From a virus (lineage: Duplodnaviria > Caudoviricetes): 64,000 nucleotides of DNA. The position numbers were made by a program, and so were the translations under genes. Shown here one piece after another: positions 1,685 through 57,356 of this stretch. A model generated the notes under the pieces. The model did not search any database, had not been told where the DNA came from, and saw nothing but the letters and a program-made list of their open reading frames with translations. The DNA is taken from IMG/VR virus record IMGVR_UViG_3300021964_009400; one strand, 5' to 3'. Position 1 is the stretch's first letter. The number at the start of each line of letters is the position of its first letter.

Positions 1685-1818
1685 CATAGTAAAAGGATAA
1701 TTTCCATCGTTATATCAACAAGTTCTACTTAAAACCCGAAAGGGGCTCGTTCTAATCAAGTAGTTTATAATCAATCGTTTTATTTAATTAGTTACGGTAA
1801 TCTATAAAGGAGATTGCT

Positions 1819-2325
1819 TTGAAATACACTATATTAAATGTATTTAAGATGTGTCTCATCTGGTTATTAATATTATTACCAGCTGAGGGAAATGCTGATT
1901 ACACCCAAGACCCAATCAAAGTTGGTAAAGTTACCAATGAAATTAGAATGGGTAAATTTGCAGGTAATCAGAATCTTGCATTTGGTGTAAAAAATATTCT
2001 CGAAGAACTTCTCTTAGATTTAGATTATGATTTATCAGACAGAGCAACCACACAAGTGAATGTTAGGTTGGTCTTTTTTGATATTAAAAATATAGGTAAA
2101 TCGATTGGGATTTATCATAATAAAGTATCCGCTACACAAATAATAGCTATTGGAGAGTTAGTTGTAGATGGTAAGGTTAAAAAGAAAACAACTCAAAAAG
2201 GTGTAAGTAAAGAAATTTCAAACTCTACATTAGTTGTTGCCTCTGATGGAACATTTAATCAACAAACTGCTTCAAATGCTTTGAAAAAAGTATGTGAACA
2301 AATTATTAAGGAATTATTAAAATGA
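1819..2325 (+). CDS. Secreted CsgG/TolB-N-like protein
   Basis: TTG start 6 nt after AAGGAG; N-terminal hydrophobic signal; GNQNLAFGVKNILEELL helix then beta strands, resembling the CsgG/HfaB fold; lies near a clearer CsgG gene. Confidence 0.45.
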   Translation: MKYTILNVFKMCLIWLLILLPAEGNADYTQDPIKVGKVTNEIRMGKFAGNQNLAFGVKNILEELLLDLDYDLSDRATTQVNVRLVFFDIKNIGKSIGIYHNKVSATQIIAIGELVVDGKVKKKTTQKGVSKEISNSTLVVASDGTFNQQTASNALKKVCEQIIKELLK

Positions 2326-4019
2326 AAAAGATTTTATTATTATTATTTAGTGTACTTTTTACAATGAGTACATATGCACAATCGACTTTAGGATATTCGA
2401 GAGTGAACACAGTAAGTCAAGTTGGAGATACTTTAGTTGTAAAATATCAGTACGGTAAAGGAACTGATATGCCAGATGCAACACTTTATCAATTTGATAT
2501 CCAATACAACAATAAGTTATTATCTCTTATTGAAAATGAGTGGATACCATCAGCAACTTCAGCACAAAAAGCAGTAAACACTTGGAATGGATATAAGTTT
2601 ACTATTGATTCTTCAAAAGACCAAACTGATTTTGATGGACAATATACGAGTTGGTTATCAGGCAATGCATCGTATGGAACAAACGCTGATTGGTCAGTAC
2701 AGAGAATAACTTATCAAGATGTAACCCCATTATCAAATGGTGATGAGTTTATGAAGATAAAGTACAAAATTAAAGATAAGGCAGGTACAAATTACTCAGA
2801 TTACAGTAACTTAATAAATGCTAACTGGGTAAACTATAAAGAATCAGATGGAACACTAATAAATTCATCTGGTACAACTGGTCTAAGTTTAACAGATATT
2901 GAAGGAGGTTCTGCAGAGAATGTAACACTTAACATAAATACAAACATTATTGATGATAACATCGGAGATGGTACTGATTTCACTTATAAGATTTATCTTA
3001 AATCAGATATAGGTAGTGGTAACCAACCAAATGAAGGAGCAAATGTTGTTGCTGAAGGTACATATGATGCCGCTGGTCAAGCAGTTGTAACTACTTTAAC
3101 AAATGATGTAGAATACTTTGTTTGGAATTGGGTTGATACTACTAAAGACTATTTAGATAATGTAGTAACCGTATCTGATTTAGCATTAGTATTTCAAGAA
3201 GCAATTGGTGGTGGTATTAATGGAGACCAAACTACATTTGATTATTATATTCAAACATTCTTAGGAAATGTATATCACGATGAGGCATTTGATGCAACAA
3301 TTAACTTTTCAGATTCATATGAGATACTTGCTTACCTACAAGGTGTAACAAGTACTAATACAACTTATATTAGTAAAAAGGGTGAATCTTATCAGACAGG
3401 TGGTAATAAATCAACATTTGGTACAATAGATTCAAATGGAAGTTATTTCGCTGGTATTGATGCAACATTCAAACCAACTGATTCAAATAAATCATTTAAC
3501 TTTGTACACGCTCTTATGGGTGATGTTAACTTCTCACACTCTTGGGAACCAGATACTAATGATACAACAGTTCCATCATCAGAACAAGCACAATCTTATT
3601 CAAACTCAACAAGAGTTTCAATGGCACCAGGACAAAAATATCAATCTGAAGAAGCAAATATTGATTTAGTATCTGAATTAAAAGATGGACAAGTAATATT
3701 CTCAATCAATTCAGATATTGATGAGATGATAGGAGCACAATTCAACATCACATATGATAACACAAGATTAGTATTGGATAATGTAATATTTGATACTGGT
3801 AATGAAATGACTAACTTCTCTAATCATTTAGAAGAAGATGGAAAAATAAACATTGGTTCGTTTGACCAAAACTTTAAGGCAGTTGTTAAAACAGGAACAC
3901 CTTATCAATTAATCTTTACACCAACAGTAACACTAAGTAATACATCGGGCTTGATTACTTTTAAAGTTAATGAAGGTGTAAAAGCAGACGGAACACAAAT
4001 TAAATTTATAATGGAATAA
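2322..4019 (+). CDS. Secreted protein with cohesin-like, dockerin-like and cohesin-like domains
   Basis: Signal peptide; YQFDIQYNNKLL and IGAQFNITYDNTRLVL cohesin-like strands; NVVTVSDLALVF...INFSDSYEILAYL dockerin-like paired helices; MGDVNFSH. Confidence 0.65.
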   Translation: MKKILLLLFSVLFTMSTYAQSTLGYSRVNTVSQVGDTLVVKYQYGKGTDMPDATLYQFDIQYNNKLLSLIENEWIPSATSAQKAVNTWNGYKFTIDSSKDQTDFDGQYTSWLSGNASYGTNADWSVQRITYQDVTPLSNGDEFMKIKYKIKDKAGTNYSDYSNLINANWVNYKESDGTLINSSGTTGLSLTDIEGGSAENVTLNINTNIIDDNIGDGTDFTYKIYLKSDIGSGNQPNEGANVVAEGTYDAAGQAVVTTLTNDVEYFVWNWVDTTKDYLDNVVTVSDLALVFQEAIGGGINGDQTTFDYYIQTFLGNVYHDEAFDATINFSDSYEILAYLQGVTSTNTTYISKKGESYQTGGNKSTFGTIDSNGSYFAGIDATFKPTDSNKSFNFVHALMGDVNFSHSWEPDTNDTTVPSSEQAQSYSNSTRVSMAPGQKYQSEEANIDLVSELKDGQVIFSINSDIDEMIGAQFNITYDNTRLVLDNVIFDTGNEMTNFSNHLEEDGKINIGSFDQNFKAVVKTGTPYQLIFTPTVTLSNTSGLITFKVNEGVKADGTQIKFIME

Positions 4020-4028
4020 GGAGAAACA

Positions 4029-4400
4029 ATGAAAAAATTAATAACACTTTTATTTTTAGTATTACTAACATCTTGTATGAAAGATGAATTTATCGAACCG
4101 ATTAATTTGGTTGAAGTACCTGAATCTTTAGAGATTTCTGAAGTACAAGGATTAAAACTTGAATCAGCAATCGTATCAGATGAAGTTAGAATGAATGTAA
4201 AATTACCATATAGTGGTATTTACAGAATTAAAATTAGAGATATATCTAAGAATTTAGTATCTCAAGAAAAAATCGAAGGTAATGAGGGAGATAATATATT
4301 AAAGGTATATGTTTCTTCATTAGGAAATAATGGGTATATAATTGAACTTACAGATGATGTTCATGATATGATAGGATTAACAACATTTGTAGTAAACTAA
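4029..4400 (+). CDS. Lipoprotein with T9SS-CTD/FlgD-like Ig domain
   Basis: Lipobox LTSC followed by MKDE; LPYSGIYRIKIRDISKNLV...SSLGNNGYIIEL resembles secretion CTD strands; SD AAGGAG 4018-4023. Confidence 0.6.
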   Translation: MKKLITLLFLVLLTSCMKDEFIEPINLVEVPESLEISEVQGLKLESAIVSDEVRMNVKLPYSGIYRIKIRDISKNLVSQEKIEGNEGDNILKVYVSSLGNNGYIIELTDDVHDMIGLTTFVVN

Positions 4401-4409
4401 GGAGATAAA

Positions 4410-4715
4410 ATGGCAAAAAAGAAAAAGAAAGAAGAAGGATTCTTTTCACAAATAAAGAATCAAATCATTGCAGGAGTTGGTATTATACTAACTACTTTGG
4501 GTGGTATATTTATAGATGAAGTAAAATCATTTATAGGAATTGAAGATGAATCAGAACCACAAACTGAGATTGTACAAGAAAACAATCAATCAGTAAATGT
4601 AACTGGTCCTGAAATCATTATCAACATACCAGAACAAAAGACAGAAACTAAAACTATAATAAAAGAAGTTCCTGTTGAAAAGAAAAAAGAAAAAGAAGAA
4701 AAAATTGATTGGTAA
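4410..4715 (+). CDS. Single-pass membrane protein
   Basis: Basic N-terminus, one hydrophobic segment (IIAGVGIILTTLGGIFI), acidic tail; SD AAGGAG 4399-4404. Confidence 0.7.
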   Translation: MAKKKKKEEGFFSQIKNQIIAGVGIILTTLGGIFIDEVKSFIGIEDESEPQTEIVQENNQSVNVTGPEIIINIPEQKTETKTIIKEVPVEKKKEKEEKIDW

Positions 4716-4773
4716 CAATCAAAAATAATAAAGATTATAAATTAAGTTTATTTTAAAAATAGGAGATTATATT

Positions 4774-4968
4774 ATGGAAGTATTAAAAGCAATTTTCACA
4801 GAAAAGGCATCAGACTACAAAGTAATGGATATTATTGTAAAAATATGGGTTGCAGGTTTATTATTCATGCTTGTATTGGGTTTTGTAGCCATTATGTATG
4901 GTATTATATCAGGTGAAGCAGATATTCAAAATGCAACTTTTGGTGTATTTGACACTTTAGGATATTAA
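4774..4968 (+). CDS. Small membrane protein
   Basis: Long hydrophobic stretch IWVAGLLFMLVLGFVAIMYGII; AGGAG 4761-4765. Confidence 0.6.
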   Translation: MEVLKAIFTEKASDYKVMDIIVKIWVAGLLFMLVLGFVAIMYGIISGEADIQNATFGVFDTLGY

Positions 4969-4977
4969 GTAAAAAAT

Positions 4978-5082
4978 ATGAAAAAATTAAAAGAATTATT
5001 AATTAAATTTGATGATTGGTTAACAAAAATTGGATATGAAATGTATCCTCAATTAACCAAACATATGAAAGATAAAAAATGA
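4978..5082 (+). CDS. Small hypothetical protein (34 aa, below the ORF track cutoff)
   Basis: MKKLKELLIKFDDWLTKIGYEMYPQLTKHMKDKK; stop overlaps the ATG of the next gene (ATGA). Confidence 0.5.
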   Translation: MKKLKELLIKFDDWLTKIGYEMYPQLTKHMKDKK

Positions 5083-5798
5083 AAAAACTTTTTTTATTAT
5101 TGGTATGTATATTTTTTACATTAAATACATTTGCACAAACAGTAGGTAAAATTAAAGCCGAAGAATATACCGCAGAATTTGAAAAGAAAAAATCAATTGA
5201 TGATGTTTCAGATTATTGGGGTGATATGATACCAGTTGCTTTACTCAATGTTGGTATATCTGATGATTTATATGAGATGTATCCAGAGTTAAGAGATGGT
5301 AGAGTAGGTTTAGGACTTACCAACATCGTAATTGAATACTTAGATTGGACAAACAGATTTGAATTCGTAGAAGAAAAATCTTCAATCAAAGATAGAATGA
5401 AATCACAATGGGTTGCTTCAAGAAAAGGTGTTTCGGAGAATCAAGTATATGGATTAGGTAAAATCAAGTTAGCAGAATATTTCGTTACAATAGAGATATA
5501 TGATTTCTCTGTTTCAGAGGATGAGGTTTTATCACTTAAAGATGGTTCTAAACAAACACAAACAACTCGTTTAGGTTTACAAGTTAGGTTTACTAATGCA
5601 GAGAATGGTACATATTTCGTAGGTTCCGGTCTTGGTACGGCGAATACAGTAAAGACTCAAGAGGGTTTGCTGGGGTTAGATTTGGATGAAATAAAGTTCA
5701 GACAATCAGCAATTGGAGTATCTACCAGAAAAGCATTGGAAACCGCTTCAGCAAGAATAGTAGCAAGAATGATTAGAAAAGGTATATTTGAAAACTAA
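5079..5798 (+). CDS. csgG: CsgG/HfaB-family curli assembly/transport-like protein
   Basis: Signal peptide; GLGLTNIVIEYLDWTNRFEFVE, AEYFVTIEIYDF, RLGLQVRFTNAENGTY match the CsgG family pattern; no lipobox Cys, unlike E. coli CsgG. Confidence 0.7.
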   Translation: MKKLFLLLVCIFFTLNTFAQTVGKIKAEEYTAEFEKKKSIDDVSDYWGDMIPVALLNVGISDDLYEMYPELRDGRVGLGLTNIVIEYLDWTNRFEFVEEKSSIKDRMKSQWVASRKGVSENQVYGLGKIKLAEYFVTIEIYDFSVSEDEVLSLKDGSKQTQTTRLGLQVRFTNAENGTYFVGSGLGTANTVKTQEGLLGLDLDEIKFRQSAIGVSTRKALETASARIVARMIRKGIFEN

Positions 5799-5801
5799 TG
5801 A

Positions 5802-7697
5802 ATGAGAAAGTTACTATCGATATTATTCTTTCTGTTTGTAGCTAATTTTAGTTACTCACAAACTTTCACACAGACATTTGTAGATAGATGTACTGGTGAA
5901 GTACAAGTTGTAACCGCAAACTTCACAAGTGGTTCTGCTATTGTATCGTTTTATAACGAGGCAAAATTATTTACCTATCAACAATACACAAATGGTGAAC
6001 TACATCAATGGTTAGTTCAAAAATATGCATGGTGGACAGCACTATCAGCATGCTCAACTGCACAAAACAATACAACAAACGCAACAAACACGGCGAATAA
6101 CGCAACAAACTCTACAAGTAACACAAGTAGTTCATCCTCGAGTGGTTCAAGTGGTAGTAGTGGAAGTGGTTCGAGTGGTAGTAGTGGAAGTGGTTCGAGT
6201 GGTTCAAGTGGAAGTGGTTCCGATTCAAGTGGAAGTGGTTCATCAGGTGGAGATAGTGGAAGTGGTTCCGATAGTGGTGGAAATGGCTCTGATTCAGGTG
6301 GTAATGGTTCCGATTCTGGTGGAGATAGTGGAAGTGGTTCCGATGGTGGTGGAGACTCTGGTGGAGATAGTGGGGGTTCTGATTCCGATGGTGGAAGTGG
6401 AGACTCTGGTGGAGATGGTTCCGATGGTGGTGATGATGGAAACTCTGGTGGAGATGGTGATGGTTCTGGTGGAGATGATGGTAGTGGAGATGGTGATGGT
6501 GATTCCGGCTCTGGTGATGGTGATGAAGGTAGTGGTGATGGTGATGGAGATGGTGATGGTGGTGATGGAGATGGTGATGGTGATGGTGGTGATGGTGATG
6601 GTGGTGATGGAGATGGTGATGGAGATGGTGATGGAGATGGCGATGGTGATGGAGATGGCGATGGTGATGGAGATGGTGATGGTGGTGATGGAGATGGTGA
6701 TGGAGATGGTGATGGAGATGGCGATGGTGATGGAGATGGCGATGGTGATGGAGATGGAGATGATTCAGATGGTGATGGTGATGATGACTCAGATGGTGAT
6801 GATGATAGTGATGATAGTGATGATTCCGATGAAGATTCTGATGAAGAAAGTGAAGAATCAGAGGAAGAAGAAAAAGAAGAAGAATCTGATGAAGAAGAAA
6901 AAGAAGAAGATGAAGAAGAAAGTGATGAGGAAGAGGAAGAAGAAAAAGAAGAAGATGAAGAGGAAGAAGAATCTGATGAAGATTCTGAAGAAGATGAAGA
7001 AGAGGAAGAAGAAAAAGAAAAAAAGTTTTTACCTATTCAATTAAAGGCTGATTTAATGTCAATGCAGGCATTAACATTAGAATATAATCAAATTCTTAAT
7101 ATAGGTGCATCTCAAACATCAATTTTTGGTGATAGAACAAATACAGCCAGTTTAATGATTTGGGATAACTTAAAACAAGCAAGTTTAGGATTAGGAACTT
7201 CAAAAGTAACATTAGATGATAACTACCAAGTATCTTGGGTAGATGGAATAAACCTATCTTATATGAGAAACTATAAAATGAATGCAATATCAACATCAGC
7301 CAGTAGAATGAAACCATTGGGTAAATGGGGAACTGTGGGTGTTGGTATAAATTATTCATATATGTTTGGTAAAGACCAACTTGGGGGAAGATTTCCTAAT
7401 ATGGTATCACTTGGATATAACTTACTTTATACAAATTCATTTCAATTAACAGATAGAATAATGTATGCACCAGCATTAATTGGTGCACAAAACCCTTTAA
7501 GTTATATGGAAGAAATGGCTGGGTTTGAAGCTATGGCAAGTACCTCAAAAGATTTTATTGGTATTTTTGCCAACTCATTTAATGTGCAATTAACACCAAG
7601 ATTTGGGTTCAATGTAGGTTGGACTCTTATTTATAGTAGTAACGAATTTGTTCCTTTGATGAACTCATTTATGATAGGAGCAAAGTTACCCTTTTAA
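5802..7697 (+). CDS. Secreted/outer-membrane protein with Ser-Gly, Gly-Asp and Glu-rich stalk and probable C-terminal beta-barrel
   Basis: Signal peptide; about 300 aa of low complexity; C-terminal about 220 aa of amphipathic strands ending GAKLPF (terminal aromatic residue). Confidence 0.65.
   Translation: MRKLLSILFFLFVANFSYSQTFTQTFVDRCTGEVQVVTANFTSGSAIVSFYNEAKLFTYQQYTNGELHQWLVQKYAWWTALSACSTAQNNTTNATNTANNATNSTSNTSSSSSSGSSGSSGSGSSGSSGSGSSGSSGSGSDSSGSGSSGGDSGSGSDSGGNGSDSGGNGSDSGGDSGSGSDGGGDSGGDSGGSDSDGGSGDSGGDGSDGGDDGNSGGDGDGSGGDDGSGDGDGDSGSGDGDEGSGDGDGDGDGGDGDGDGDGGDGDGGDGDGDGDGDGDGDGDGDGDGDGDGDGGDGDGDGDGDGDGDGDGDGDGDGDGDDSDGDGDDDSDGDDDSDDSDDSDEDSDEESEESEEEEKEEESDEEEKEEDEEESDEEEEEEKEEDEEEEESDEDSEEDEEEEEEKEKKFLPIQLKADLMSMQALTLEYNQILNIGASQTSIFGDRTNTASLMIWDNLKQASLGLGTSKVTLDDNYQVSWVDGINLSYMRNYKMNAISTSASRMKPLGKWGTVGVGINYSYMFGKDQLGGRFPNMVSLGYNLLYTNSFQLTDRIMYAPALIGAQNPLSYMEEMAGFEAMASTSKDFIGIFANSFNVQLTPRFGFNVGWTLIYSSNEFVPLMNSFMIGAKLPF
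6127..7022 (+). repeat. Coding low-complexity tandem repeats (AGTGGT, GGTGATGGAGAT, GAAGAA) including a 77 bp exact duplication
   Basis: 6600-6676 is identical to 6681-6757; 6 and 12 bp periodic GAT-GGN units. Confidence 0.9.
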
Positions 7698-7709
7698 GGA
7701 GAAAAAAAT

Positions 7710-8246
7710 ATGAAAAAGATAGATTGGAAATTAATAGGAATGGGAGTATTTATAGGAACAACAATATGGTTGTTTACAAATCCCAAAATTCAAGAAGTAG
7801 AAAAAATTAAAGAAATAGAAGTTATTCAGACTGTTGTAGATAGTATCTATATAGAAAAACTTGTAGAGAAAAAAGTATTTGTACCAAAGTATATTACAAA
7901 AGAAGTAGAAAAACAAGTTGAAGTAATCAAAGAAGTAATCGTAGAAAAACCAGTTGAAGTAATTAAAACAGTTTATGTAGATAAACCTTATGAAACAATT
8001 GTTGATAGATATGTATTACCAGAACCTAAATGGTATTTAGGATTTGGATACAAGTTTGATAATAATAATTATTTTAGTGGAACTGATATAAAACTTTTAA
8101 GAAAATTTAAAAGTGATAAAATGTTTTCTTTAGATGTTGGTTTAAGAAATGATTTATTAGATGCTGAAACTGGTGTGAGTAAATTATATCCATATGTTGG
8201 AGCATCAATTTACTTCAGATTAGATAAACCAAATACTAATTTTTAA
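7710..8246 (+). CDS. Membrane-anchored protein with VEK/VIKE repeats and C-terminal beta strands (possibly spanin-like)
   Basis: N-terminal TM; EVIKEVIVEKPVEVIK repeats; WYLGFGY and YVGASIYF strands; SD TAAGGAG 7695-7701. Confidence 0.55.
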   Translation: MKKIDWKLIGMGVFIGTTIWLFTNPKIQEVEKIKEIEVIQTVVDSIYIEKLVEKKVFVPKYITKEVEKQVEVIKEVIVEKPVEVIKTVYVDKPYETIVDRYVLPEPKWYLGFGYKFDNNNYFSGTDIKLLRKFKSDKMFSLDVGLRNDLLDAETGVSKLYPYVGASIYFRLDKPNTNF

Positions 8247-10867
8247 TGAAAAAACTTCTTTACATACTATTACTTTTACCCACTTTAGTTTTAGGACAAT
8301 TAGGTGGACCAACTTCATCAGATGTTTCTGATGGTGAAGGTGCGGCAACTTTGGTATGGTTAGGAACTCCATCAAACTCAAGTGAATCGATTTCTAATAT
8401 CAGACCTGGTGATACAATCGTAATGGGGATTAAGATTCACAACTACAAAAATAATAACCCAATAACTTATGCTCACATTGATGTTCAGTATGATAAAAGA
8501 AAATACACAAAAATAAGTCATGTATTTAGTTCATCTGCAAGTGGAACTTCACACTTCATGGGTGATAATCTTTCAATAACTTGGACAAATAGTTATGACC
8601 ACTATGATATATGGAGTCAATGGTCTCGTGGTGGTAGTTATGGAAGTAATTCTAATTATTGGGTTGACCATTATCAAGCAACTGCAACTAATAATGATTT
8701 AGCATCTCTTGATTGGTATGTAAAAGTAAATCTATTAGTAAAAGATTATAATGAAGATTTAGATTATACAGATGGTATTATTGTAACAATGGGTCAAATG
8801 ACAGAAAGTAATGGTACTTCTTATGACCCAATGTATGCATATGAGTACCAAGATTTCTCTTATGCTCCACTACAAGCTGCACCAACATTCTCTTCAGCAG
8901 TTAGTGATGGACAAGATGCAGTAATTTACAAATCATTTAAAATAAACGATTATGATTCAAATGGTGGTCAATCAGAATATAATGCTCATCCTCAGAGTTC
9001 ATCTGATTTTGATGCTATGTTTGATTATGCAAATAAGAAAACTACTGAGTGGACACATTATGGTAGAGAAACTGCAACAAAGGCATTTACTTGGCCATGG
9101 AGTAATATCTTACCAAGACATGCTAATAGTAATTTCGGTTGGGAAATTGAAGCAAAATTTATAGCAGAAGAAACAGGTACATATACATTCCAAGTAAGTT
9201 CAGATGATAGAAGTGATTTCTTTTTTGATTCTAATATAGATGGAAACATGACAAACACTAACTTGGCTTATAATAATGGAGCAAGAACTGTTGATATCGA
9301 TTTAACTGCTGATAATGTTTATTCATTTAGAGTTAGATACGAACAAGGAGTTGGTGGTGCAAATTTATATTTGAAATGGAAAAGACCATCTGATTCTGAT
9401 TATCAATTTAATGAAGATGAAATATGGAGTGTTAGTCCAGCAAGTATTCCTCATAAATTAGATGTAGTTTATAATATCAATGATGATTTAGATAAAAGTA
9501 AATTCAGTTCAAAGTTAGAATATGATAATGGAACAGTAAATGGTACAAAAACTGAATCATTAGGAACGAATGGACAAGTATCATATAATGATGATGATGG
9601 TGGAGTTTATTCTACTCAAGTAAATACTGGTAATAAGAAAGCAAACACAACTGGTGGTTCGGTAGAGTGGATTGTAGTTTATGATTATGATAATACAAAC
9701 AATAGATACAGAGTTGGTATCGATAGTAGAGAATTTACAAACCAACAACCAGATTGGGATACGGTAACTAAATTAAAATTATTTGATTTATGGGATGGTT
9801 CAGTAACACCAAAGAGTGGTAACAACAATGCAGATACTCATTGGAACGAATATTGGATTTATACAGATACAGAACTTGATTGGAGTAATTCAACATTTTC
9901 ATCTTATATTAGAGATGCAAGTGGTTTTTATGGATTAAAAGCAGAAGTTGAATTTGTAGATGTTACAAGTTATGTAAATCACGATTTATTATTAGAAGTT
10001 GATGGAACTTATTATTCAGAACAATATTCAAATGTAGTTACAATACAAGATGTTGCTTTAGCATTTAGTGAACTTACGAGTGGTGGTAGTATAGGACCTA
10101 ACCCAAGTAGTGGTGGTACATTTACAACTGGTATTGAATATGTAGTTTCTGATGTTAATGAAGATGGTAAATTTGATTTTGTAGATACACAATTAATGTT
10201 AGAACATTTATTTGGTGATACAGACCCATTTGAAGGAAATGTATTTGATGATGTTGTAATGTTATTTGAAAGTGATTATAATAGTTGGAGTACAACTGAT
10301 TGGTCAACAGGTGTTCCGAGAGGTAAAACTAAAACTTATGTACCAAGTACATCATTCAGTCAAAGAACACAAAGTAACACTTACAATATTGCATTTTTAG
10401 GTGATGTAAACTTTTCTCATTCTGAAGAACCTACAAACTTAACAACATCAGCACAAGAAATGACAATTGCATATTCATCTACTCGTGGTGTAACACAACA
10501 AAGTAATCATATAAATTTTGATATTATAAGAGAAGGTAATCTAATTAGTTTAGAACTTTCAATTCCTTCAAATCAGAAAAATATAATTGGTTCACAGTTT
10601 AAAATTTATTTTGATAATGATAAAGTTGATTACAAAGAAACAGAATTTTCAAATGAATCTATTCCAAATTTTGCAACTGATAGAACTAATTATGTAAACA
10701 TTGGTTCATTTAGTTCAGATGGTTCTAAAAATTTAAATGGAGGTATAACTTATAAATTAAATTTCGAACTTAAATCTGATTTACAATCAACATTAGGATT
10801 ATTTGGAATTAGATTTTGGGAATTGGTAGATAAAGATAATATAAAAGTAGAGCTTAAAATAAAATGA
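8246..10867 (+). CDS. Secreted protein with cohesin-like, PA14, dockerin-like and cohesin-like domains
   Basis: Signal peptide; GTYTFQVSSDDRSDFFFD...FRVRYEQGVGGANLYLKWK (PA14); DVNEDGKFDFVDTQLML (dockerin/EF-like); LGDVNFSH; IIGSQFKIYFDNDKV (cohesin); paralog of 2322..4019. Confidence 0.75.
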   Translation: MKKLLYILLLLPTLVLGQLGGPTSSDVSDGEGAATLVWLGTPSNSSESISNIRPGDTIVMGIKIHNYKNNNPITYAHIDVQYDKRKYTKISHVFSSSASGTSHFMGDNLSITWTNSYDHYDIWSQWSRGGSYGSNSNYWVDHYQATATNNDLASLDWYVKVNLLVKDYNEDLDYTDGIIVTMGQMTESNGTSYDPMYAYEYQDFSYAPLQAAPTFSSAVSDGQDAVIYKSFKINDYDSNGGQSEYNAHPQSSSDFDAMFDYANKKTTEWTHYGRETATKAFTWPWSNILPRHANSNFGWEIEAKFIAEETGTYTFQVSSDDRSDFFFDSNIDGNMTNTNLAYNNGARTVDIDLTADNVYSFRVRYEQGVGGANLYLKWKRPSDSDYQFNEDEIWSVSPASIPHKLDVVYNINDDLDKSKFSSKLEYDNGTVNGTKTESLGTNGQVSYNDDDGGVYSTQVNTGNKKANTTGGSVEWIVVYDYDNTNNRYRVGIDSREFTNQQPDWDTVTKLKLFDLWDGSVTPKSGNNNADTHWNEYWIYTDTELDWSNSTFSSYIRDASGFYGLKAEVEFVDVTSYVNHDLLLEVDGTYYSEQYSNVVTIQDVALAFSELTSGGSIGPNPSSGGTFTTGIEYVVSDVNEDGKFDFVDTQLMLEHLFGDTDPFEGNVFDDVVMLFESDYNSWSTTDWSTGVPRGKTKTYVPSTSFSQRTQSNTYNIAFLGDVNFSHSEEPTNLTTSAQEMTIAYSSTRGVTQQSNHINFDIIREGNLISLELSIPSNQKNIIGSQFKIYFDNDKVDYKETEFSNESIPNFATDRTNYVNIGSFSSDGSKNLNGGITYKLNFELKSDLQSTLGLFGIRFWELVDKDNIKVELKIK

Positions 10868-11208
10868 AAAAATTTTTAATATTAATAGTATTGTTATTAC
10901 TTTCTTGTCAAAAAGATGAGTTGATTGAAGTAGAAATTCCTCAATCATATGAACTTATTTTTGATGAAGTAGAATCAACAATACTTGATGGCCAAGATAT
11001 TTCTTTTGAAGTATCTGTTGAAGGAAAATATTTATTATTAATTACAGATATTGAGAAACAATCTGTAATTTCAAAAGAATCATTTTTGTTACCCATTGGT
11101 ATTGTAACTCGTAAAATCTACACAAAATCTTTACCAAAGAAAAAACTACAACTAACTTTAGAAACTTCAACAGAAGTTCTAAAATCTACTTATATTGTTA
11201 TAGAATAA
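10864..11208 (+). CDS. Lipoprotein with T9SS-CTD-like Ig domain (paralog of 4029..4400)
   Basis: Lipobox LLSC followed by QKDE; ISFEVSVEGKYLLLITD...KIYTKSLPKKKLQLTL. Confidence 0.6.
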   Translation: MKKFLILIVLLLLSCQKDELIEVEIPQSYELIFDEVESTILDGQDISFEVSVEGKYLLLITDIEKQSVISKESFLLPIGIVTRKIYTKSLPKKKLQLTLETSTEVLKSTYIVIE

Positions 11209-11258
11209 TACTTATTGGTAAGGAAACCTTTTTAAAAACTTTGAGGTTATAAAATAAA

Positions 11259-11471
11259 ATGTCAGCAAAAATAAAACCAAGTACAAAAGAATATATTAAG
11301 GTCAATAATAAAATGACCAATAAATTCAGAATAGTTCATTACACACCTTCTAATATAAAAACAGAGGAACTAATTAAATTATATGATTCACCTTCTTATA
11401 AGAGAAAAAAACATCTTATAAAAATTGAATTAGTGAAACGAGGAGTATGGGAAAACTTAAAGAAAAAATAA
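11259..11471 (+). CDS. Hypothetical basic protein
   Basis: ORF track; fits the gene-dense + strand array. Confidence 0.6.
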   Translation: MSAKIKPSTKEYIKVNNKMTNKFRIVHYTPSNIKTEELIKLYDSPSYKRKKHLIKIELVKRGVWENLKKK

Positions 11472-11632
11472 TAGAAAAAGGAAGTAAGATTGTTGCTAAA
11501 TCTCAATCTAAAAAACAATTAGAAAAAGTTCTACCAAAACCAATTGCAAAACAAGTTGCAAAAAAAATTGGTAAAGGAGTAGAATCACTTACTTCATCTG
11601 CTATCGATTTGTGGAATAAATTCAAGAAGTAA
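11447..11632 (+). CDS. Hypothetical protein
   Basis: ORF track; overlaps the upstream gene end. Confidence 0.5.
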   Translation: MGKLKEKIIEKGSKIVAKSQSKKQLEKVLPKPIAKQVAKKIGKGVESLTSSAIDLWNKFKK

Positions 11633-11640
11633 ACTTACCT

Positions 11641-11650
11641 TATATTTATA
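11641..11650 (+). promoter_or_regulatory. TATATTTATA late-type promoter motif
   Basis: Ends 5 nt before ATG 11656; the motif recurs at 12321, 14632, 15181, 16361, 31084, 54291 and 61599. Confidence 0.45.
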
Positions 11651-11655
11651 GTAGT

Positions 11656-12300
11656 ATGTTTATATTCACAGAAGAAAATATCGGTAATATTAAGAATGCT
11701 ATCTATACAACAGATGGTATAAAGGATAAACACGCTGAAAGAATTGAGTATGTTAAAACAAAAGGTTTATTCAAAGATTTAGATTTATCAAAATATTTTC
11801 ACAAAAATCCACCAAAAAATACATCAATGAAAACTCTACAAGAGTTATATTGGTTAAGAGATTTACCAGAAGATAAAGAGTTTGTTGAAAAACACGATGA
11901 TGTTAAAGGTGTATTTAAAGAGGTATGTGAAGAACATGGGATAGAGTTTCCAAAAGAATTAGTTAAAGAACTAATTAAATCATGTTCAATGTTGGAACTA
12001 AAATATCATTTCAATAGACCAAGACCTTACCAACTTGCAGATTATTATAATATTAAGTTGGGTGAGAATATACTTGAAAGTATGAAAACCCCTTCTTACC
12101 CTTCTGGTCATGCTGCACAAGGTATTCTAATAGGTAAAGTTTTACAAACAAAATTACCAATCAATACTAATGCATTTATTGAAGCAGGAGAACGAATATC
12201 TTATTCTCGAAACATTGGTGGAGCACATTATCCTTCGGATTCAGAAATGGGTAAAAACATTGGTCATCGAATGTACGAATATATAATTCACAAGATTTAA
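11656..12300 (+). CDS. PAP2 / acid phosphatase-haloperoxidase superfamily protein
   Basis: Three signature motifs KYHFNRPRP, PSYPSGH, SRNIGGAHYPSD. Confidence 0.85.
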   Translation: MFIFTEENIGNIKNAIYTTDGIKDKHAERIEYVKTKGLFKDLDLSKYFHKNPPKNTSMKTLQELYWLRDLPEDKEFVEKHDDVKGVFKEVCEEHGIEFPKELVKELIKSCSMLELKYHFNRPRPYQLADYYNIKLGENILESMKTPSYPSGHAAQGILIGKVLQTKLPINTNAFIEAGERISYSRNIGGAHYPSDSEMGKNIGHRMYEYIIHKI

Positions 12301-12336
12301 TACTTATATAAAGAAACATTTATATTTATATAGTAT

Positions 12337-13365
12337 ATGGGATGGAGTGATAAATATAAAAAAAGTATAAATTGTAATAATCCCAAAGGTTTTTCACAAA
12401 AAGCACATTGTGCAGGAAGAAAGATTAGGAAAGAAAACATGAAATTATCAGAGTTAAAAAATATAATCAAAGATTTAATTCAAGAAAGAAGTATCAACGC
12501 TATTAGTAAAGCACAAGAAAAAAACGCCACTAGAATAAAAGATACTTTAGAACTTTACAAAAAGGCAAAAGGTGGAAATGATGCTTATAAAAAGAAAAAC
12601 ATTATTAAAGTTTTATATAAACTTAATGATGAAAAGAAAAAATTAGAAAAAGAAATGGATGATAAGATATCATCTTTATATAAAAATGCTGATTACAAAG
12701 GACCGATTGATGAATCAATCGAACTTGGTAAGGTTTATCCTAATCCTTATGCAACTGCATTTAAACCAGAATCTCAAATCAAAGAAGAAGAAAACTCTGT
12801 AAATGAAATGCAGGTTGTAAATAAGAAAACAGGTAAAGATATTACCAGACATGTATTAGATTTGTTAAAGGGTAAAATTGATAAGAAAAAGTTTGAAAAA
12901 CTTACTGGTCTAAAAAAAGAATCAGTAAACGAAAGAATAAATCCAAAGTTCTACGATGCAAGAGTTCAATATATAGACCCTAGAAGTAAGAAAAAGTTTG
13001 TTGGTGATGTAGTTAGATATGATAATGGTGAATACAAAGTTAACTTAGGTAAAGATGGTAGATTTGAAAAATATATCTTGGCAAAAGAAAAAGATTTGAA
13101 AATTGTATCTAAATCTACAAAAAGAACATTTGAATCAGTAAATGAAGAGGCTGATGACCATGAAGTAGGTATGGGATTATCATCTTTAAAATCATCAGTT
13201 CGTTCCGCTAAAATCATTTATGATAATATAAAAAAAAGAAACATTGAAGAATTAGATGGTTGGGTACAAGAAAAATTAACTCTTGCATCTGATTACCTTA
13301 AAAATGTTGCTGATTACATGGAAGATTTAGACGAATACGATAAAGATGGAACAAGTAATAACTGA
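12337..13365 (+). CDS. Probable virion/internal head polyprotein
   Basis: N-terminal WSDKYKKSINCNNPKGFSQKAHCAG motif; repeated (E/N)SVNE segments; DHEVGM...ELDGWVQEKLTLASDY module seen in large-phage proteins. Confidence 0.5.
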   Translation: MGWSDKYKKSINCNNPKGFSQKAHCAGRKIRKENMKLSELKNIIKDLIQERSINAISKAQEKNATRIKDTLELYKKAKGGNDAYKKKNIIKVLYKLNDEKKKLEKEMDDKISSLYKNADYKGPIDESIELGKVYPNPYATAFKPESQIKEEENSVNEMQVVNKKTGKDITRHVLDLLKGKIDKKKFEKLTGLKKESVNERINPKFYDARVQYIDPRSKKKFVGDVVRYDNGEYKVNLGKDGRFEKYILAKEKDLKIVSKSTKRTFESVNEEADDHEVGMGLSSLKSSVRSAKIIYDNIKKRNIEELDGWVQEKLTLASDYLKNVADYMEDLDEYDKDGTSNN

Positions 13366-13990: not shown

Positions 13991-13999
13991 TCCAAAAAA

Positions 14000-14041
14000 G
14001 CCATTGTAGTCTCAACTTTTTTTCGTATATTTACTATGTAA
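14000..14041 (+). promoter_or_regulatory. Conserved phage early promoter (copy 1 of 7)
   Basis: GCCATTGTAGTCTC; 19 nt from CATTG to TATATTTA; then ctaTGTAA. Confidence 0.8.
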
Positions 14042-14069
14042 ATAATTAATAACACTTAAAACTTAAACT

Positions 14070-14225
14070 ATGTATTCTTTAGATTGTTCTTTTTTCTCTG
14101 AAACTTTTGACTCGATTGATGAATTAATCAATTATGTAATGATGAATGGTTCAGACCCCAACTACGAAATCACTAAAAATGGAAATTCAACTGGTGAAAT
14201 GGCAATAGATTTAATACAATTTTAA
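14070..14225 (+). CDS. Small hypothetical protein (51 aa)
   Basis: MYSLDCSFFSETFDSIDELINYVMMNGSDPNYEITKNGNSTGEMAIDLIQF; directly downstream of the early promoter and A-rich leader. Confidence 0.65.
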   Translation: MYSLDCSFFSETFDSIDELINYVMMNGSDPNYEITKNGNSTGEMAIDLIQF

Positions 14226-14226
14226 T

Positions 14227-14619: not shown

Positions 14620-14645
14620 AACATTACAAACTATTTATACAAGAT

Positions 14646-15173
14646 ATGTTACCAAGAAGTTTATTTGTTGAAAGTAAGAAACTCAGAGTATTTGATTTTG
14701 ATGATACTCTTGTAAAAACTACATCTTTTATTTATGTTACTAATAATGGTAAAACAAGAAAACTTACACCTGGTCAGTATGCAATCTATAATGAAAAACC
14801 AGGTGATGAATTTGATTTTAAAGATTTTGAAAAAGTACAAAATCCAAATGAAATAAAAAAAATAACTAAAGTTCTACGAAGAATTGTTGCATCGAGTGGT
14901 GGACAAGGAGTTCACATTCTTACTGCAAGAGCTGCACACAAACCGATTAGACAATACCTCAAAGATATCGGTATCAATATGAGTAAAATATATGTAACTG
15001 CATTGGCATCTAACAATCCAAAGGATAAAGCTGATTGGATTGAAGATAAGATTGATAATGAAGATTATGATGATGTTTACTTTGCTGATGATTCTAAAAA
15101 GAATGTAGATGCCACCAAAAAAATGTTAAGAAGAAAAGATATTAGGTGGAGAGTTCAACACATAAAACACTAA
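14646..15173 (+). CDS. HAD-superfamily hydrolase
   Basis: VFDFDDTL (motif I), ILTAR (motif II), FADDSKKN (motif IV). Confidence 0.8.
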   Translation: MLPRSLFVESKKLRVFDFDDTLVKTTSFIYVTNNGKTRKLTPGQYAIYNEKPGDEFDFKDFEKVQNPNEIKKITKVLRRIVASSGGQGVHILTARAAHKPIRQYLKDIGINMSKIYVTALASNNPKDKADWIEDKIDNEDYDDVYFADDSKKNVDATKKMLRRKDIRWRVQHIKH

Positions 15174-15191
15174 AATCCTATATTTATAGAT

Positions 15192-16202
15192 ATGAGACAC
15201 CTACTATTTATTTTATGGGTGTTGTTACTCACAAGTTGCAGTTCAACATTTCAATTATCAAGTTATTACAACAATGACCCAATTTATGGTGTCGTAGAAT
15301 CAACAGGTGATACAATTAAAATCGATGTATTAGATTCAGATTGGGATTTAGATAGAAAATTCAGATTCGATGATAAATTTAGATGGAACTTTGCTCAATA
15401 TGCAATGAACCAAGATTTAAGATGGCACTATGATTTCTATTGGAATAATAGAATGTATAGAAGTCCATTTGCATCCCCATTTGATTTTTATTGGAACTCA
15501 AACCAATATTGGTGGAATTGGTCATCTAACTATCCTTTCAATTATGAATTTAATCATTGGGATAGATTTGGTTTTTATGGATATAGATATTGGAATGACC
15601 CATTTAGATTTGGAAATAGTTGGGCATGGGGATATAAACCAAATAGATGGTTCAGATATAATCGAGGATTTGCATACAATTTCCCTACAAACAATAGAAA
15701 CATCTCATATAACATAGGTAGGAGAGGTTCTAATGGAGTTGTAGTAACTCCAAGTGGTAGTAGAGGGAATTCAAATGTAACTATTAACAGAGGTAGAAAT
15801 AGTAGTGATGTAGTATTACCAAGAAATTATAGAAATATTGATGTTAAACCCAACCCTGGTGATGTTGATGTTGTTATTGAAAATAAAAATAGAACTCGTT
15901 TAGGTAGATTAATACAAAAGTTTGAAAATGCATCTGGTGTAAGAGTTAGAACATATGAAAACCCAAACAATGTTCCTAACAACAATAGAATCAGAAACTA
16001 TAATAGAGTTGAAAATGGTAATAATGTTAATAGAAATAATAACAACAATATAAGAAACTATAACAGACCACCATCAAAAAGTTATTCTACACCACCAAGA
16101 AGTTCATCACCACCTGTAATCAACAGAGGTTCATCAAGTGGCAGAAGTAGTGGAGGAGCAGTTATTAGTAGAGGTTCCTCTGGTCGTAATAACATTGATT
16201 AA
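15192..16202 (+). CDS. Lipoprotein with aromatic/Asn-rich core and N/R/S/G low-complexity tail
   Basis: Lipobox LTSC; W/Y/F/N-rich middle; disordered C-terminus. Confidence 0.7.
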   Translation: MRHLLFILWVLLLTSCSSTFQLSSYYNNDPIYGVVESTGDTIKIDVLDSDWDLDRKFRFDDKFRWNFAQYAMNQDLRWHYDFYWNNRMYRSPFASPFDFYWNSNQYWWNWSSNYPFNYEFNHWDRFGFYGYRYWNDPFRFGNSWAWGYKPNRWFRYNRGFAYNFPTNNRNISYNIGRRGSNGVVVTPSGSRGNSNVTINRGRNSSDVVLPRNYRNIDVKPNPGDVDVVIENKNRTRLGRLIQKFENASGVRVRTYENPNNVPNNNRIRNYNRVENGNNVNRNNNNNIRNYNRPPSKSYSTPPRSSSPPVINRGSSSGRSSGGAVISRGSSGRNNID

Positions 16203-16353: not shown

Positions 16354-16390
16354 ATTTCTTTATATTTATATAGGTAAAAGGAATATATAT

Positions 16391-18458: not shown

Positions 18459-18626
18459 AAGATATTTAAAATTAAAATGGAAATGGGTAGATAATAACCC
18501 ACGAACTGCAGCTTGGTTAGGTTGGTTCAAAGGATTATTGACTGGTTTCCTAATATACTACTTTTTTTTAAAGTAAATATATATAAGTAATAAAGGTTAC
18601 ATCTCAAATTAATGGGAGGTAATATA

Positions 18627-25601: not shown

Positions 25602-25633
25602 TTTGGTAATCTAAAAAAAAAGTTGTATATTTG
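25602..25633 (+). promoter_or_regulatory. Bacteroidota sigma-A type promoter
   Basis: TTTG-N20-TATATTTG immediately before the ferredoxin gene. Confidence 0.75.
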
Positions 25634-31124: not shown

Positions 31125-31391
31125 ATGAATACAATTTTAATTATTTTAGCAATTCTTGCAATTGGAGCAGGAGTTTATTATTTCGGATTCTACACAAAAG
31201 GTAAAATCAACGATAGAGATGGGGATTTTATTCCTGATGAAGTTGAAGATGCAGTAGAAGATGTAAAGAAAGTTGCGAAAACTGTAAAAAGAAGAGCAAA
31301 AAGAGTAAAAGAAGAACTTGGAGATGTTGTGAAAGCAGCAAAAGGAACACCAAGAAAAGGTAGAAGAAAGTCTACTAAAAAAACTAAATAA
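31125..31391 (+). CDS. Membrane-anchored small protein
   Basis: N-terminal TM, DRDGDFIPDEVED, basic tail; TATTTATA upstream. Confidence 0.65.
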   Translation: MNTILIILAILAIGAGVYYFGFYTKGKINDRDGDFIPDEVEDAVEDVKKVAKTVKRRAKRVKEELGDVVKAAKGTPRKGRRKSTKKTK

Positions 31392-31400
31392 GGAGTACAA

Positions 31401-41908: not shown

Positions 41909-42086
41909 ATATTTATTATTATGGAAGATACTTTATTAAAAAAAACAATTAAAGTTATAGATTCTTGTAAAAATGATATACATTTTGATGGAGCAATTAG
42001 ATATGTAAATAATTTTAAAAAATTTGGTAGTAAAAAACAATATGAGTTTATATTAAATCATTTACATAAAACATTAAACAATTATT

Positions 42087-55702: not shown

Positions 55703-56009
55703 TATGATTGATGATTGAGAAAATAGGGTTTGATTCCCTCTCTAGTTAATCGAAAAGACCTCTCCCTTGTAGATATAGGGGGCCGTCAGTAGTGGTTGGG
55801 AGATACACCTACTATAAAAACTGAATCTCTTTTAAAAATAACGGTGTAAGTCTTTATAGGAAATGAAAGATACTCGAGCTACCGTAAATCAGCCATCGGT
55901 TAGGGGTTTCCGATGGTATCAATAGGGTGATTACTCACTCTCTCCTATCCTAAAGTGTTCGTCCGAACCACCCACTAAGTTGTATCACCCTTCTTAGTGG
56001 GTTTTTTTT
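55700..56009 (+). ncRNA. Putative ~300 nt structured non-coding RNA of unknown class
   Basis: Bounded by promoter copy 6 and an intrinsic terminator; at least 6 internal stems (e.g. CCATCGG 55893-55899 / CCGATGG 55910-55916; ACGGT 55841 / ACCGT 55881; ATAGG 55922 / CCTAT 55944); GC-richer than its flanks. Confidence 0.65.
55971..56009 (+). terminator. Rho-independent terminator
   Basis: CCCACTAAG 55971-55979 pairs with CTTAGTGGG 55993-56001, followed by T8. Confidence 0.85.
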
Positions 56010-56050
56010 ATCCAATTGTTAATAACTTTTGACGAAAATAATTCAAAAAA

Positions 56051-56092
56051 GCCATTGTAGTCTCAAAAAAAAATCGTATATTGGTGGTGTAA
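56051..56092 (+). promoter_or_regulatory. Conserved phage early promoter (copy 7)
   Basis: GCCATTGTAGTCTC; 19 nt to TATATTGG; tggTGTAA. Confidence 0.8.
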
Positions 56093-56094
56093 TA

Positions 56095-56442
56095 ATGAGT
56101 AAGAGTTTAAACATTAAAATAAATAAAAATATGAGTAAAATAATAGGTTCAGCGTTAAAAGAGTTAAAATCAGTAGGTTCGTGTATTGATATAGATTTAG
56201 GGATTGTATATCCATTAAATGAAGATAGTACTCCTGATTGGGATTCACCAATAGAATTATTAGATGATGAGGTATCCTCAGAATGGATTGCGGCCTTATC
56301 TTCTGAAGATTACCAAATATGTAAACCCTTTATAGAATCAATAGATGTAAAACAACTAGCAAATGATGTTATCAAATATGGAATATTAGAAACAAAAGAA
56401 TCAAAAGAATTAACCAATTGGATAATGAATAGAAATATGTAA
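56095..56442 (+). CDS. Hypothetical early protein
   Basis: ATG 56095 or 56131 after promoter copy 7; the tracked start 56029 overlaps the promoter. Confidence 0.6.
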   Translation: MSKSLNIKINKNMSKIIGSALKELKSVGSCIDIDLGIVYPLNEDSTPDWDSPIELLDDEVSSEWIAALSSEDYQICKPFIESIDVKQLANDVIKYGILETKESKELTNWIMNRNM

Positions 56443-56457
56443 ACCCTTTATAGAATC
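56315..56457 (+). repeat. 25 bp direct repeat
   Basis: AAATATGTAAACCCTTTATAGAATC at 56315-56339 and 56433-56457. Confidence 0.85.
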
Positions 56458-56462
56458 GTAAT

Positions 56463-56651
56463 ATGTACACAAACGAAAGATTAGAACAACATTATCATAA
56501 TGAAGCCCGTACCTTTATGGAACTTCTTGATATGAAGTATAAAATGCGGAATAGAATTTCACTTGATGAGTACCTTATAGAGTATAAGGATATACTAAGT
56601 AATAAAGAAAAAGAAAGAGGAGAAGTTCTGATAAACTTAATTACCAACTAA
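56463..56651 (+). CDS. Hypothetical protein
   Basis: ORF track. Confidence 0.55.
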   Translation: MYTNERLEQHYHNEARTFMELLDMKYKMRNRISLDEYLIEYKDILSNKEKERGEVLINLITN

Positions 56652-56728
56652 AAAAGATTGCGGGTAGATGTAGTAATACCTATATAGACCCATACACTAT
56701 AAACACTAATACTAATAACAAACACTAT

Positions 56729-56971
56729 ATGGAAGGAACAATATTTAAACACAGAAATTGTATAATAGAAAAAACACCTACTAACACTATACCAGATATG
56801 GTGACGATAACCAAGACACCTAAACTAAGAGAAGATTTCTTAGGTAAAAGATACATCAACTTAGAAGCGGCCTTTAAACAAATAGAGTTGTTCGAAGATA
56901 TGAGGTTGATAAGAAGTAAGGAGAAATATGTAAAAGCACAACTAATTGATGTTGTGGTAGTGGAAGAGTAG
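56729..56971 (+). CDS. Hypothetical protein
   Basis: ORF track; A-rich leader. Confidence 0.65.
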   Translation: MEGTIFKHRNCIIEKTPTNTIPDMVTITKTPKLREDFLGKRYINLEAAFKQIELFEDMRLIRSKEKYVKAQLIDVVVVEE

Positions 56972-57164
56972 TGGAGGTTTCTTGTAACTGAGCAGGTCGC
57001 AGGTCATGTAGTTGAGCTCGGAGTGGTTTTTTTATCGAGGTTGACTTTTTACCCTATGGAAAAAACACCCTATACTAACCCTATGGTTAGGTTGCTCTAT
57101 CACATTGTAGACCTGCACACTTAAGGTAGGGAGTACGAGGTTTAAAATTTAAAATAAAAATTAT

Positions 57165-57356
57165 ATGTTAATAATAAAAAGAAAAAAGGGCGAAGATATG
57201 GATAAGATGTTAAAGAGATATAAATCTAAAGTTAAAAGGACAAAACTTATTGAGGAAGTTAGGGGTAGAACGAATTATACTAAGAAGAGTGTTAAGAAAA
57301 GAAAATTACTGAATAAGGGGAAGTGGATTCAGTCTATCGTTAGTAGTATGGAGTAG
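57165..57356 (+). CDS. rpsU: Ribosomal protein bS21
   Basis: MLII...GEDMDKMLKRYKSK...RGRTNYTKKSVKKR...KWIQ, colinear with Bacteroidota bS21. Confidence 0.85.
   Translation: MLIIKRKKGEDMDKMLKRYKSKVKRTKLIEEVRGRTNYTKKSVKKRKLLNKGKWIQSIVSSME

Follow-up and report, generated by a model that had tools for sequence, protein, structure and literature searches.

In Flavobacterium johnsoniae, the anti-Shine–Dalgarno (anti-SD) tail of 16S rRNA is held in a pocket that involves bS21, bS18, and bS6, in which Tyr54 of bS21 is a key residue (PMC7797042, PMC9976891). Tyr54 makes a stacking contact with A1534 of the 16S tail, against which Ile55 is also packed (PMC7797042). This single bS21 residue decides the reading of messages led by a Shine–Dalgarno (SD) sequence: in the Y54A mutant, strong-SD reporters rise 1.7–3-fold in cells and 3-fold in vitro, and SD-less reporters are unaffected (PMC9976891). 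The 64,000-nucleotide (nt) stretch of Caudoviricetes DNA analyzed here (IMG/VR record IMGVR_UViG_3300021964_009400; hereafter the window, meaning this whole stretch) encodes a bS21 at 57165–57356 and carries SDs before a subset of late-type genes. The comparisons below tentatively suggest that such messages are read by ribosomes opened by a different phage bS21, encoded in the head-morphogenesis operon of relatives, and that the bS21 of the window mimics the host protein.

The window resembles the F. johnsoniae system of rpsU autoregulation (PMC7797042, PMC9976891) in the pocket, tail, and key residue concerned and in the favoring of SD-led messages once the bS21 clamp is missing or mutated. 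In addition, the nearest cellular relatives of its bS21 are Flavobacteriales rpsU genes, and an extended GAAAGGAGGTG-type SD precedes rpsU in 67 of 80 cellular homologs, which agrees with the published autoregulation. The two systems differ in that F. johnsoniae has one host gene with a very long SD (about −20 kcal/mol) that controls itself, whereas here dozens of phage late genes carry ordinary 5–7-base SDs and the phage gene for the clamp type of bS21 has no SD.

Phage-encoded bS21 has been described in freshwater Bacteroidetes phages, where it is likewise small, Flavobacteriia-like, and aromatic at position 54, is proposed to enter host ribosomes, and is concluded to sequester the anti-SD in the manner of the host protein (Chen et al., 2022, PMC9723584). 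Many clamp-type phage bS21 copies in the present data adjoin head genes behind a late-type motif, a further likeness. However, all proteins of that study are aromatic at position 54 and phage-gene SDs were not part of it (PMC9723584), whereas the window bS21 lies in an early region and the phage clade also has an Arg54, head-operon kind that travels with SD-led genes. Other phages are also cited as encoding bS21 (Mizuno et al., 2019, as cited in PMC9976891). In Francisella tularensis, a swap of bS21 paralogs alters the mRNA choice of the ribosome; these paralogs are encoded by the bacterium, and in the abstracts their selectivity is not put down to the freeing of a sequestered anti-SD (PMC9578407, PMC12262407). 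A literature search found no report of a late-gene SD split or of two kinds of phage bS21.

The preliminary description of the window cited seven SDs at a spacing of 5–8 nt from the start codon, and all are present with such spacers. They lie on the plus strand: AAGGAG at 1807–1812 (spacer 6 nt) precedes TTG 1819 of a signal-peptide protein; TAAGGAG at 4017–4023 (5 nt) precedes ATG 4029 of a lipoprotein; TAAGGAG at 4398–4404 (5 nt) precedes ATG 4410 of a membrane protein; AGGAG at 4761–4765 (8 nt) precedes ATG 4774 of a small membrane protein; and TAAGGAG at 7695–7701 (8 nt) precedes ATG 7710 of a membrane protein. Farther downstream, GGAGGT at 18615–18620 (6 nt) precedes ATG 18627 of a membrane protein encoded downstream of the endolysin gene, and TAAGGAG at 31389–31395 (5 nt) precedes TTG 31401 of a P-loop ATPase/kinase-like protein. 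ATG 18627 is internal to the longest open reading frame (ORF), and its ortholog in G001, a related genome rated complete (275,970 bp; collinear with window 1–52,500 at 65–88% DNA identity), begins at the equivalent ATG behind AAGGAGG; it is likely the true start of the gene. The G001 ortholog of 31401, at 244764, is also preceded by AAGGAG.

A strong SD was defined as a core of at least five SD bases complementary to the CCUCC core, located 4–11 nt before the start codon. Such sites precede 8 of 106 called plus-strand starts in the window versus 13 of 1660 non-start ATGs (Fisher p = 1.4e-5), and 24 of 339 starts versus 43 of 6658 other ATGs in G001 (p = 2e-15), so that enrichment at starts is about 10-fold in both. 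Spacers range from 4 to 11 nt with a mode of 8, and about 90% of genes lack an SD. Pairing with a Bacteroidota-type 16S tail is predicted at −7.3 to −9.1 kcal/mol for the six SDs of called starts, and is mostly weaker than −3 kcal/mol at other window starts.

These sites are also conserved. (A)GGAG followed by TTG is kept at the 1819 site in L010–L016, L020, L021, and L026, with differing flanks; the 4029 site has AGGAG in L013, L014, L020, and L021 and a weaker version or none in relatives farther removed; the 4774 site retains AGGAG or GGAG in L011, L013–L016, L020, and L021, L024 having only AAGGAA; and the 7710 site is kept in L013, L015, L016 (as AAGGAGG), L020, L021, and L024 and is absent from L018, L019, L025, and L026. 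SDs before orthologs of these four genes thus persist amid changing bases in relatives at 50–94% protein identity and fade in more distant contigs. In a survey of 80 contigs with a tail sheath gene 75–100% identical to that of G001, AGGAG before the sheath and tail tube genes is invariant in every readable locus (about 70–78 of 80), although leaders and promoter distances differ from locus to locus; two late genes neighboring sheath and tube never have an SD in the same loci. The invariant AGGAG and fixed spacer (mode 8 nt) therefore indicate ribosome-binding sites and not promoter parts. With at least five complementary bases at 4–11 nt, enrichment at starts, and conservation in relatives, the window SDs are, by sequence criteria, genuine and selected translation signals.

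The restriction of SDs to late-type genes, as previously claimed, is borne out. A recurring motif, ATATTTAT(A/T), stands upstream of sheath and tube in both G001 and the cultured Flavobacterium phage immuto, and was treated as a late promoter because of this position. In the window, a late-type promoter motif ATATTTATT (1676–1684, plus strand) precedes the opening gene of the envelope-protein operon by 143 nt, and the block containing it is conserved in the same place in L011–L014, L016, L020, and L021; copies at 16362 and 31083 stand at the head of the units to which 18627 and 31401 belong. All strong SDs of the window sit in units headed by the late motif, and none directly follows any of the seven early promoter cassettes. 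When SD frequency was compared by promoter class genome-wide, a check run on G001, SD-like sites were found at 16 of 35 genes directly behind the late motif versus 2 of 29 directly behind the early one (p = 6.5e-4). Classing window genes by a promoter motif within 120 nt revealed no SD difference between classes, the late motif that heads the operon lying 143 nt upstream and thus outside this limit. The SD-led subset in the window comprises the envelope-protein operon, the lysis-gene neighbor, and the kinase-like gene; in relatives, tail sheath, tail tube, and head or neck proteins are SD-led as well.

A further arrangement was observed at SD-less genes, in which the late motif ends 3–6 nt before the ATG: (T)ATATTTATA at 11642–11658, 12322–12339, 15180–15194, and 41909–41923, and the TATTTATA core of the motif at 14632–14648. 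With a transcription start a few bases past the motif, these transcripts would be leaderless or nearly so, a third style of initiation.

Genes 14070, 34499, 36681, and 41420, which had been described as having SD-free leaders, do have leaders of A, T, and C only. Copies of an early promoter cassette stand before the first three, and the one before ATG 14070, with its conserved SD-free leader, occupies 14003–14069 (plus strand); 41420 follows a TATATTTG promoter. The seven cassettes, at 14003, 34142, 34438, 36604, 55232, 55664, and 56054, consist of ATTGTAGTCTCA, 7–9 nt, and (T)CGTA, and of TTG, 19 nt, and TATATTTA, TATATTAG, or similar. Their general form is TTG-N19-TAnnTTT(G/A), spaced as TTG, 19 nt, TATATT(T/A)(A/G), and exact TAnnTTTG occurs at 25626, 25996, and 41390. 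Bacteroidota sigma-A promoters have the form −33 TTG/−7 TAnnTTTG, which we take the spacing of the early cassette to represent. An CTTAAAAC leader stands between promoter and start at all four genes; this conserved CTTAAAAC(TTAAA) element, found 8–17 nt before early-gene starts (window 14055, 34491, 36664, and 41405; G001 2025, 24709, 163105, 250139, and 261361), might represent an initial transcribed sequence or a site at which a translational repressor binds.

The promoter form, the Flavobacterium host of immuto, and the nearest cellular bS21 homologs together indicate that the host is very probably a member of Flavobacteriales, a lineage with SD-blind ribosomes. This and the SD-less state of about 90% of genes accord with the SD-poor host lineage proposed earlier. 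Seven bS21 genes on contigs of bacterial genomes or metagenome-assembled genomes (L346, L389, and five others among L334–L413) have the phage-type Lys-Lys-Ser hinge described below, and the two examined (Lutibacter and Aquimarina) also lack an upstream SD. These are probably prophage or phage contigs binned with bacteria, and hint at hosts.

The ORF at 57165 is a real bS21 gene (57165–57356, plus strand). Its 63-amino-acid product matches Pfam PF01165 (Ribosomal_S21) with 39.3 bits, above the curated cut-off of 27 (E = 5e-10), and its best solved match is F. johnsoniae bS21 (7JIL chain z), aligned without gaps over residues 1–63 (E = 5.6e-11), followed by 9i5v (2e-8) and others at 5e-4 or worse. 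The protein is of the Flavobacteriia-like clamp type, that is, with an aromatic residue at 54 and Ile55; it has Trp54, Ile55, and Gln56, and Trp may stack like Tyr. Aromatic-54, Ile55, and Gln56 are kept in 16 homologs at 46–87% identity, the nearest of which have Tyr54. Lys41 replaces Pro41: the hinge is Lys-Pro-Ser in 72 of 80 cellular homologs, and Lys-Lys-Ser in the window and in all 15 aligned phage homologs.

The position of the gene is immediately downstream of three early cassettes and immediately upstream of DNA methyltransferase genes. At 57104–57164 (plus strand) are the degenerate remnant of a cassette and an A/T-rich, SD-free leader, and the leader at 57135–57164 consists of A and T only, so that it has no extended autoregulatory SD; none of the phage clamp-type bS21 copies examined has an upstream SD. 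About 190 nt upstream of the gene (56975–57164) are almost base-for-base the same in L199 (5801–6000), where the bS21 protein is 87% identical, and the non-coding leader is therefore better conserved than the gene itself. The fold of the leader is unremarkable relative to shuffled sequence (z = −0.75). A protein search for this bS21 among deposited phages returned one huge-phage record only, and two salt-marsh metatranscriptomes contain short contigs of relatives, none of which spans the bS21 ORF.

On this evidence, the window bS21 should hold the anti-SD as the host protein does, and it is best read as a host mimic that would be freed from the SD feedback of the host. The preliminary description had it replace the host protein and free the anti-SD, and had named sequestration of the anti-SD by the phage protein as an outcome that would contradict the idea; judged from sequence, the phage protein matches that outcome. 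It is improbable that anti-SD availability is changed by the window bS21, because its clamp residues are host-like, its gene is SD-free and in the early region, the SD-using genomes G001 and G002 lack it, and strong SDs precede only 5 of 1149 ORFs (0.4%) neighboring aromatic-kind bS21 genes at 80 viral loci. Trp54 was also considered as an enabling change and rejected, as the nearest homologs have Tyr and SDs are used in relatives without the window-type gene.

G001 and G002 each have one different bS21. In G001 and in many metagenomic contigs, its gene lies between those of the prohead protease and of scaffold, Gp23, and gp13 proteins, and encodes 102–113 amino acids with a long basic tail, Arg54, and Glu or Arg at position 55. 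The best solved matches of this head-operon kind are proteobacterial bS21 proteins; the second-best is labeled bS21B and may be a Francisella paralog. By synteny with G001, a head-operon bS21 gene is expected in the present genome about 110.4 kb beyond the end of the window.

Three side observations concern this kind of bS21. Its gene has its own TATACTTATATA motif and an AAGGAG 1 nt from the ATG, too close for usual SD use (L044 1440–1480, which is G001 116,730–116,766; L188–L197; L297 and L299); this site could block the start of the gene once the anti-SD is freed, as a negative feedback. A hybrid bS21 (L317–L319, match 10001–10258) combines an N-terminus of the head-operon type with Tyr54-Ile55-Gln56, and is a natural control for residue 54. 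Microcystis phage Mel-JY01 (PP395634.1; L140 and L143), deposited as infecting a cyanobacterium and with a sheath at 47% identity, has a ATTTATAT-like late motif, an Arg54 bS21 gene adjoining the scaffold gene, and GGAG before late genes, all in common with the present Bacteroidota-type clade.

SD use was compared with bS21 type across genomes and loci. Strong SDs precede 6.8% of starts versus 0.65% of other ATGs in G001 (Arg54), 7.1% versus 0.78% in the window (Trp54), 2.3% versus 0.73% in G002 (Arg54, gene relocated), 0.9% versus 2.1% in G003 (Arg54), and 0.9% versus 3.0% in immuto, which has no bS21; for Mel-JY01, the GGAG class precedes 8.3% of starts versus 1.4% of other ATGs. In contrast to the aromatic kind, the head-operon kind, at 51 loci, has strong SDs at 155 of 950 neighboring ORFs (16%), and the hybrid Tyr54-Ile55-Gln56 kind, at three loci, at 3 of 73. 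When bS21 proteins were grouped at 70% identity into nine aromatic and four non-aromatic clusters, the rate of SD-led genes had a median of 0% in the former and was 22%, 18%, 6%, and 0% in the latter. The association between SD use and bS21 type is therefore strong in pooled counts and, once relatedness is allowed for, suggestive, with exceptions.

The explanation that fits best, which is put forward tentatively as somewhat short of probable, is that SD-led late messages are read by ribosomes opened by the head-operon Arg54 bS21, the window bS21 being a host mimic. In Flavobacteriales ribosomes, the 16S anti-SD tail is locked away by bS21, bS18, and bS6. Early phage genes have host-type promoters with A/U-rich leaders devoid of SDs, and a subset of genes behind late promoters carries a canonical (U)AAGGAG. 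Such messages would be read best by ribosomes with a freed anti-SD, and the freeing agent may be the proteobacterial-like second phage bS21 with Arg54 and a long basic tail, which would mimic the Y54A or C-terminal-deletion mutants of F. johnsoniae. The window bS21 would most likely keep or restore SD-blind ribosomes, or sustain the supply of bS21 after host shut-off, and would act as the closed arm of a switch, or have no part in it, and not as the opener. The idea of gating of SD-led late genes by a phage bS21 thus gains support for the head-operon paralog and not for the window gene. Of the translational switch proposed in the preliminary description, the conserved late-only SDs, a very probably SD-blind host, and a tie in relatives between SD use and clamp-less bS21 are supported, and the window bS21 as the opener is not. 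A stricter form of the idea, in which one phage genome has two opposed paralogs, an early locking host mimic that has escaped the host feedback and a late clamp-less unlocker, and these act as a two-state switch of the ribosome and set when SD-led virion and envelope proteins are made in an otherwise SD-blind host, is rather doubtful.

Several points weigh against opening by the head-operon bS21. The contrast between bS21 kinds at the level of independent clusters reaches only p = 0.054. G003 has an Arg54 bS21 and no SD use, G002 has weak SDs only, LR756508 has a non-aromatic bS21 and no SD before the sheath gene, and two non-aromatic clusters have 0–6% SD-led genes. Many late genes, including the capsid gene of G001, have only AGGAA or no SD. 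With about −8 kcal/mol, the phage SDs fall far short of the rpsU site (−20 kcal/mol) on which the strongest SD effects were measured. The second bS21 of the present genome is predicted from synteny, and searches with the G001 head-operon bS21 and with a 107-amino-acid variant found no cluster on a 274,938-bp contig, which is the longest to carry the window bS21 and presumably represents the present genome. In five long contigs that have the aromatic kind, it is the single bS21, and both kinds in one genome would therefore be unusual. In addition, the timing of both paralogs is deduced from gene position and motifs, and their entry into host ribosomes is putative.

Among the alternatives, the passive one is that host bS21 falls after host shut-off, that the resulting bS21-free ribosomes favor SDs as a late timer, and that phage bS21 serves other ends, such as ribosome upkeep or evasion of defense. 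F. johnsoniae ribosomes lacking bS21 do exist and translate SD-led mRNA faster (PMC9976891), and the presence or type of bS21 predicts SD use incompletely, as G003, LR756508, and some clusters illustrate. However, immuto, a Flavobacterium phage with no bS21, has no late-gene SDs despite the same type of late promoter, and SD use is concentrated in Arg54-type lineages, which makes a passive timer unlikely. It is also conceivable, at a lower level of confidence, that the host of this clade is not SD-blind, that SDs boost some late proteins in high demand, much as they do in ordinary phages, and that the early/late contrast reflects leader styles linked to promoters. The host assignment is a prediction, the best-conserved SDs lie on the genes of the abundant sheath and tube proteins, and late genes are also preceded by GGAG in a relative that is listed as a Microcystis phage. 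This reading fits poorly with the SD-less state of about 90% of genes, including all behind host-type promoters; with the promoters, bS21 type, and host of the related phage, all of which indicate Flavobacteriales; with the extended SD of the nearest Flavobacteriales rpsU genes, rpsU being essentially the sole SD-led gene (PMC9976891); and with the lack of a strong SD at the major capsid gene.

The earlier model, in which the window bS21, by virtue of Trp54 and a changed C-terminal helix, takes the place of the host protein, loosens the pocket, and switches on SD-led late and surface genes, is improbable. It draws on the co-occurrence of the bS21 gene and SD-led genes in one genome, on departures from the host consensus at positions 54 and 41 (Lys for Pro), and on the ability of single changes at residue 54 to alter SD use in F. 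johnsoniae (PMC9976891). Nevertheless, Trp keeps a stacking ring in a family that conserves aromatic-54, Ile55, and Gln56, and is a recent swap given the Tyr of the nearest homologs; SD-led neighbors are rare in phages with the same bS21 family (0.4%); G001 and G002 have SD-led late genes without a window-type bS21; and the gene is in the early region with an SD-free leader. Least credible of all, and very improbable, is that the GGAG motifs do not bind ribosomes and are leftovers of gene transfer, parts of late transcription starts, or RNA stability elements. Several motifs do lie shortly downstream of late promoter motifs, and PHROGs and Pfam contain no known relatives of the envelope genes. 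However, the motifs keep a fixed distance from the start codon, whereas that from the promoter varies; they are present at the operon-internal genes 4029, 4410, and 31401; and AGGAG is invariant in all readable relatives of the sheath survey amid drifting surroundings.

The window fits the accessory and early region of a T4-like marine phage of about 275 kb. All its ORFs of appreciable size lie on the plus strand, the G+C content is about 28%, and no tRNA genes are present; recognized genes encode DNA methyltransferases, an AAA ATPase, an HNH nuclease, sugar-metabolism proteins, and an amidase endolysin (gene 17970 has hits to amidase/endolysin families). A DNA similarity search with 25 kb of the window found no match among deposited phages, an exact 42-base match was absent from the viral collection and confined to one 7.6-kb contig in metagenomes, and the gene block at 1.8–11 kb is common to 30 related viral contigs. 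G001 encodes tail sheath, tail tube, Gp23 capsid, and gp13-like neck proteins and a T4-type DNA polymerase, from which the phage is judged T4-like; the resemblance to T4 extends to the prohead protease and to separate early (host sigma) and late promoter classes. The two differ in the late motif, which is ATATTTAT(A/T) here and not TATAAATA: the latter has only two plus-strand copies in the window, the one examined lying within coding sequence. In T4, SDs are used by all gene classes.

The envelope-protein genes belong to a ten-gene run at 1819–11208, nearly all of whose products have signal peptides, lipoprotein boxes, or membrane segments, and which includes a 631-amino-acid protein with a long Ser/Gly/Asp-rich stretch. 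No PHROGs match was found for the nine genes scanned at 1819–10867 and no Pfam match for the seven up to 8246; PHROGs and Pfam also returned nothing for ten genes at 60–8246. Annotated cohesin- and lectin-domain genes of immuto may correspond to this run. Near bS21, the second DNA methyltransferase gene (58470–59238) is two overlapping ORFs of 125 and 136 amino acids in the window and one 255-amino-acid ORF in L006 (2258–3025), a contig with an identical bS21; the split may reflect a frameshift, variation between strains, or an error in sequencing. Upstream, 54400–55200 is a C-rich stretch without ORFs, and downstream of the 55664 early cassette come some 300 nt devoid of ORFs (55660–56010), which end in a terminator-like hairpin. 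An Rfam search of 53500–57600 gave one sub-threshold chance hit only. This part of the window may be a genome end or origin region, because the ends of the G001 contig map there.

By far the most often phage-encoded ribosomal protein is bS21, and the redirection of ribosomes by phages is little understood. In a widespread clade of marine phages, conserved SDs are confined to late genes, and the window adds the odd case of a host-like bS21 copy alongside SD-led genes. The occurrence of SD use with bS21 forms that lack the clamp residue (16% of neighboring genes) and not with those that keep it (0.4%) would turn a vague notion of ribosome hijacking into a concrete prediction.

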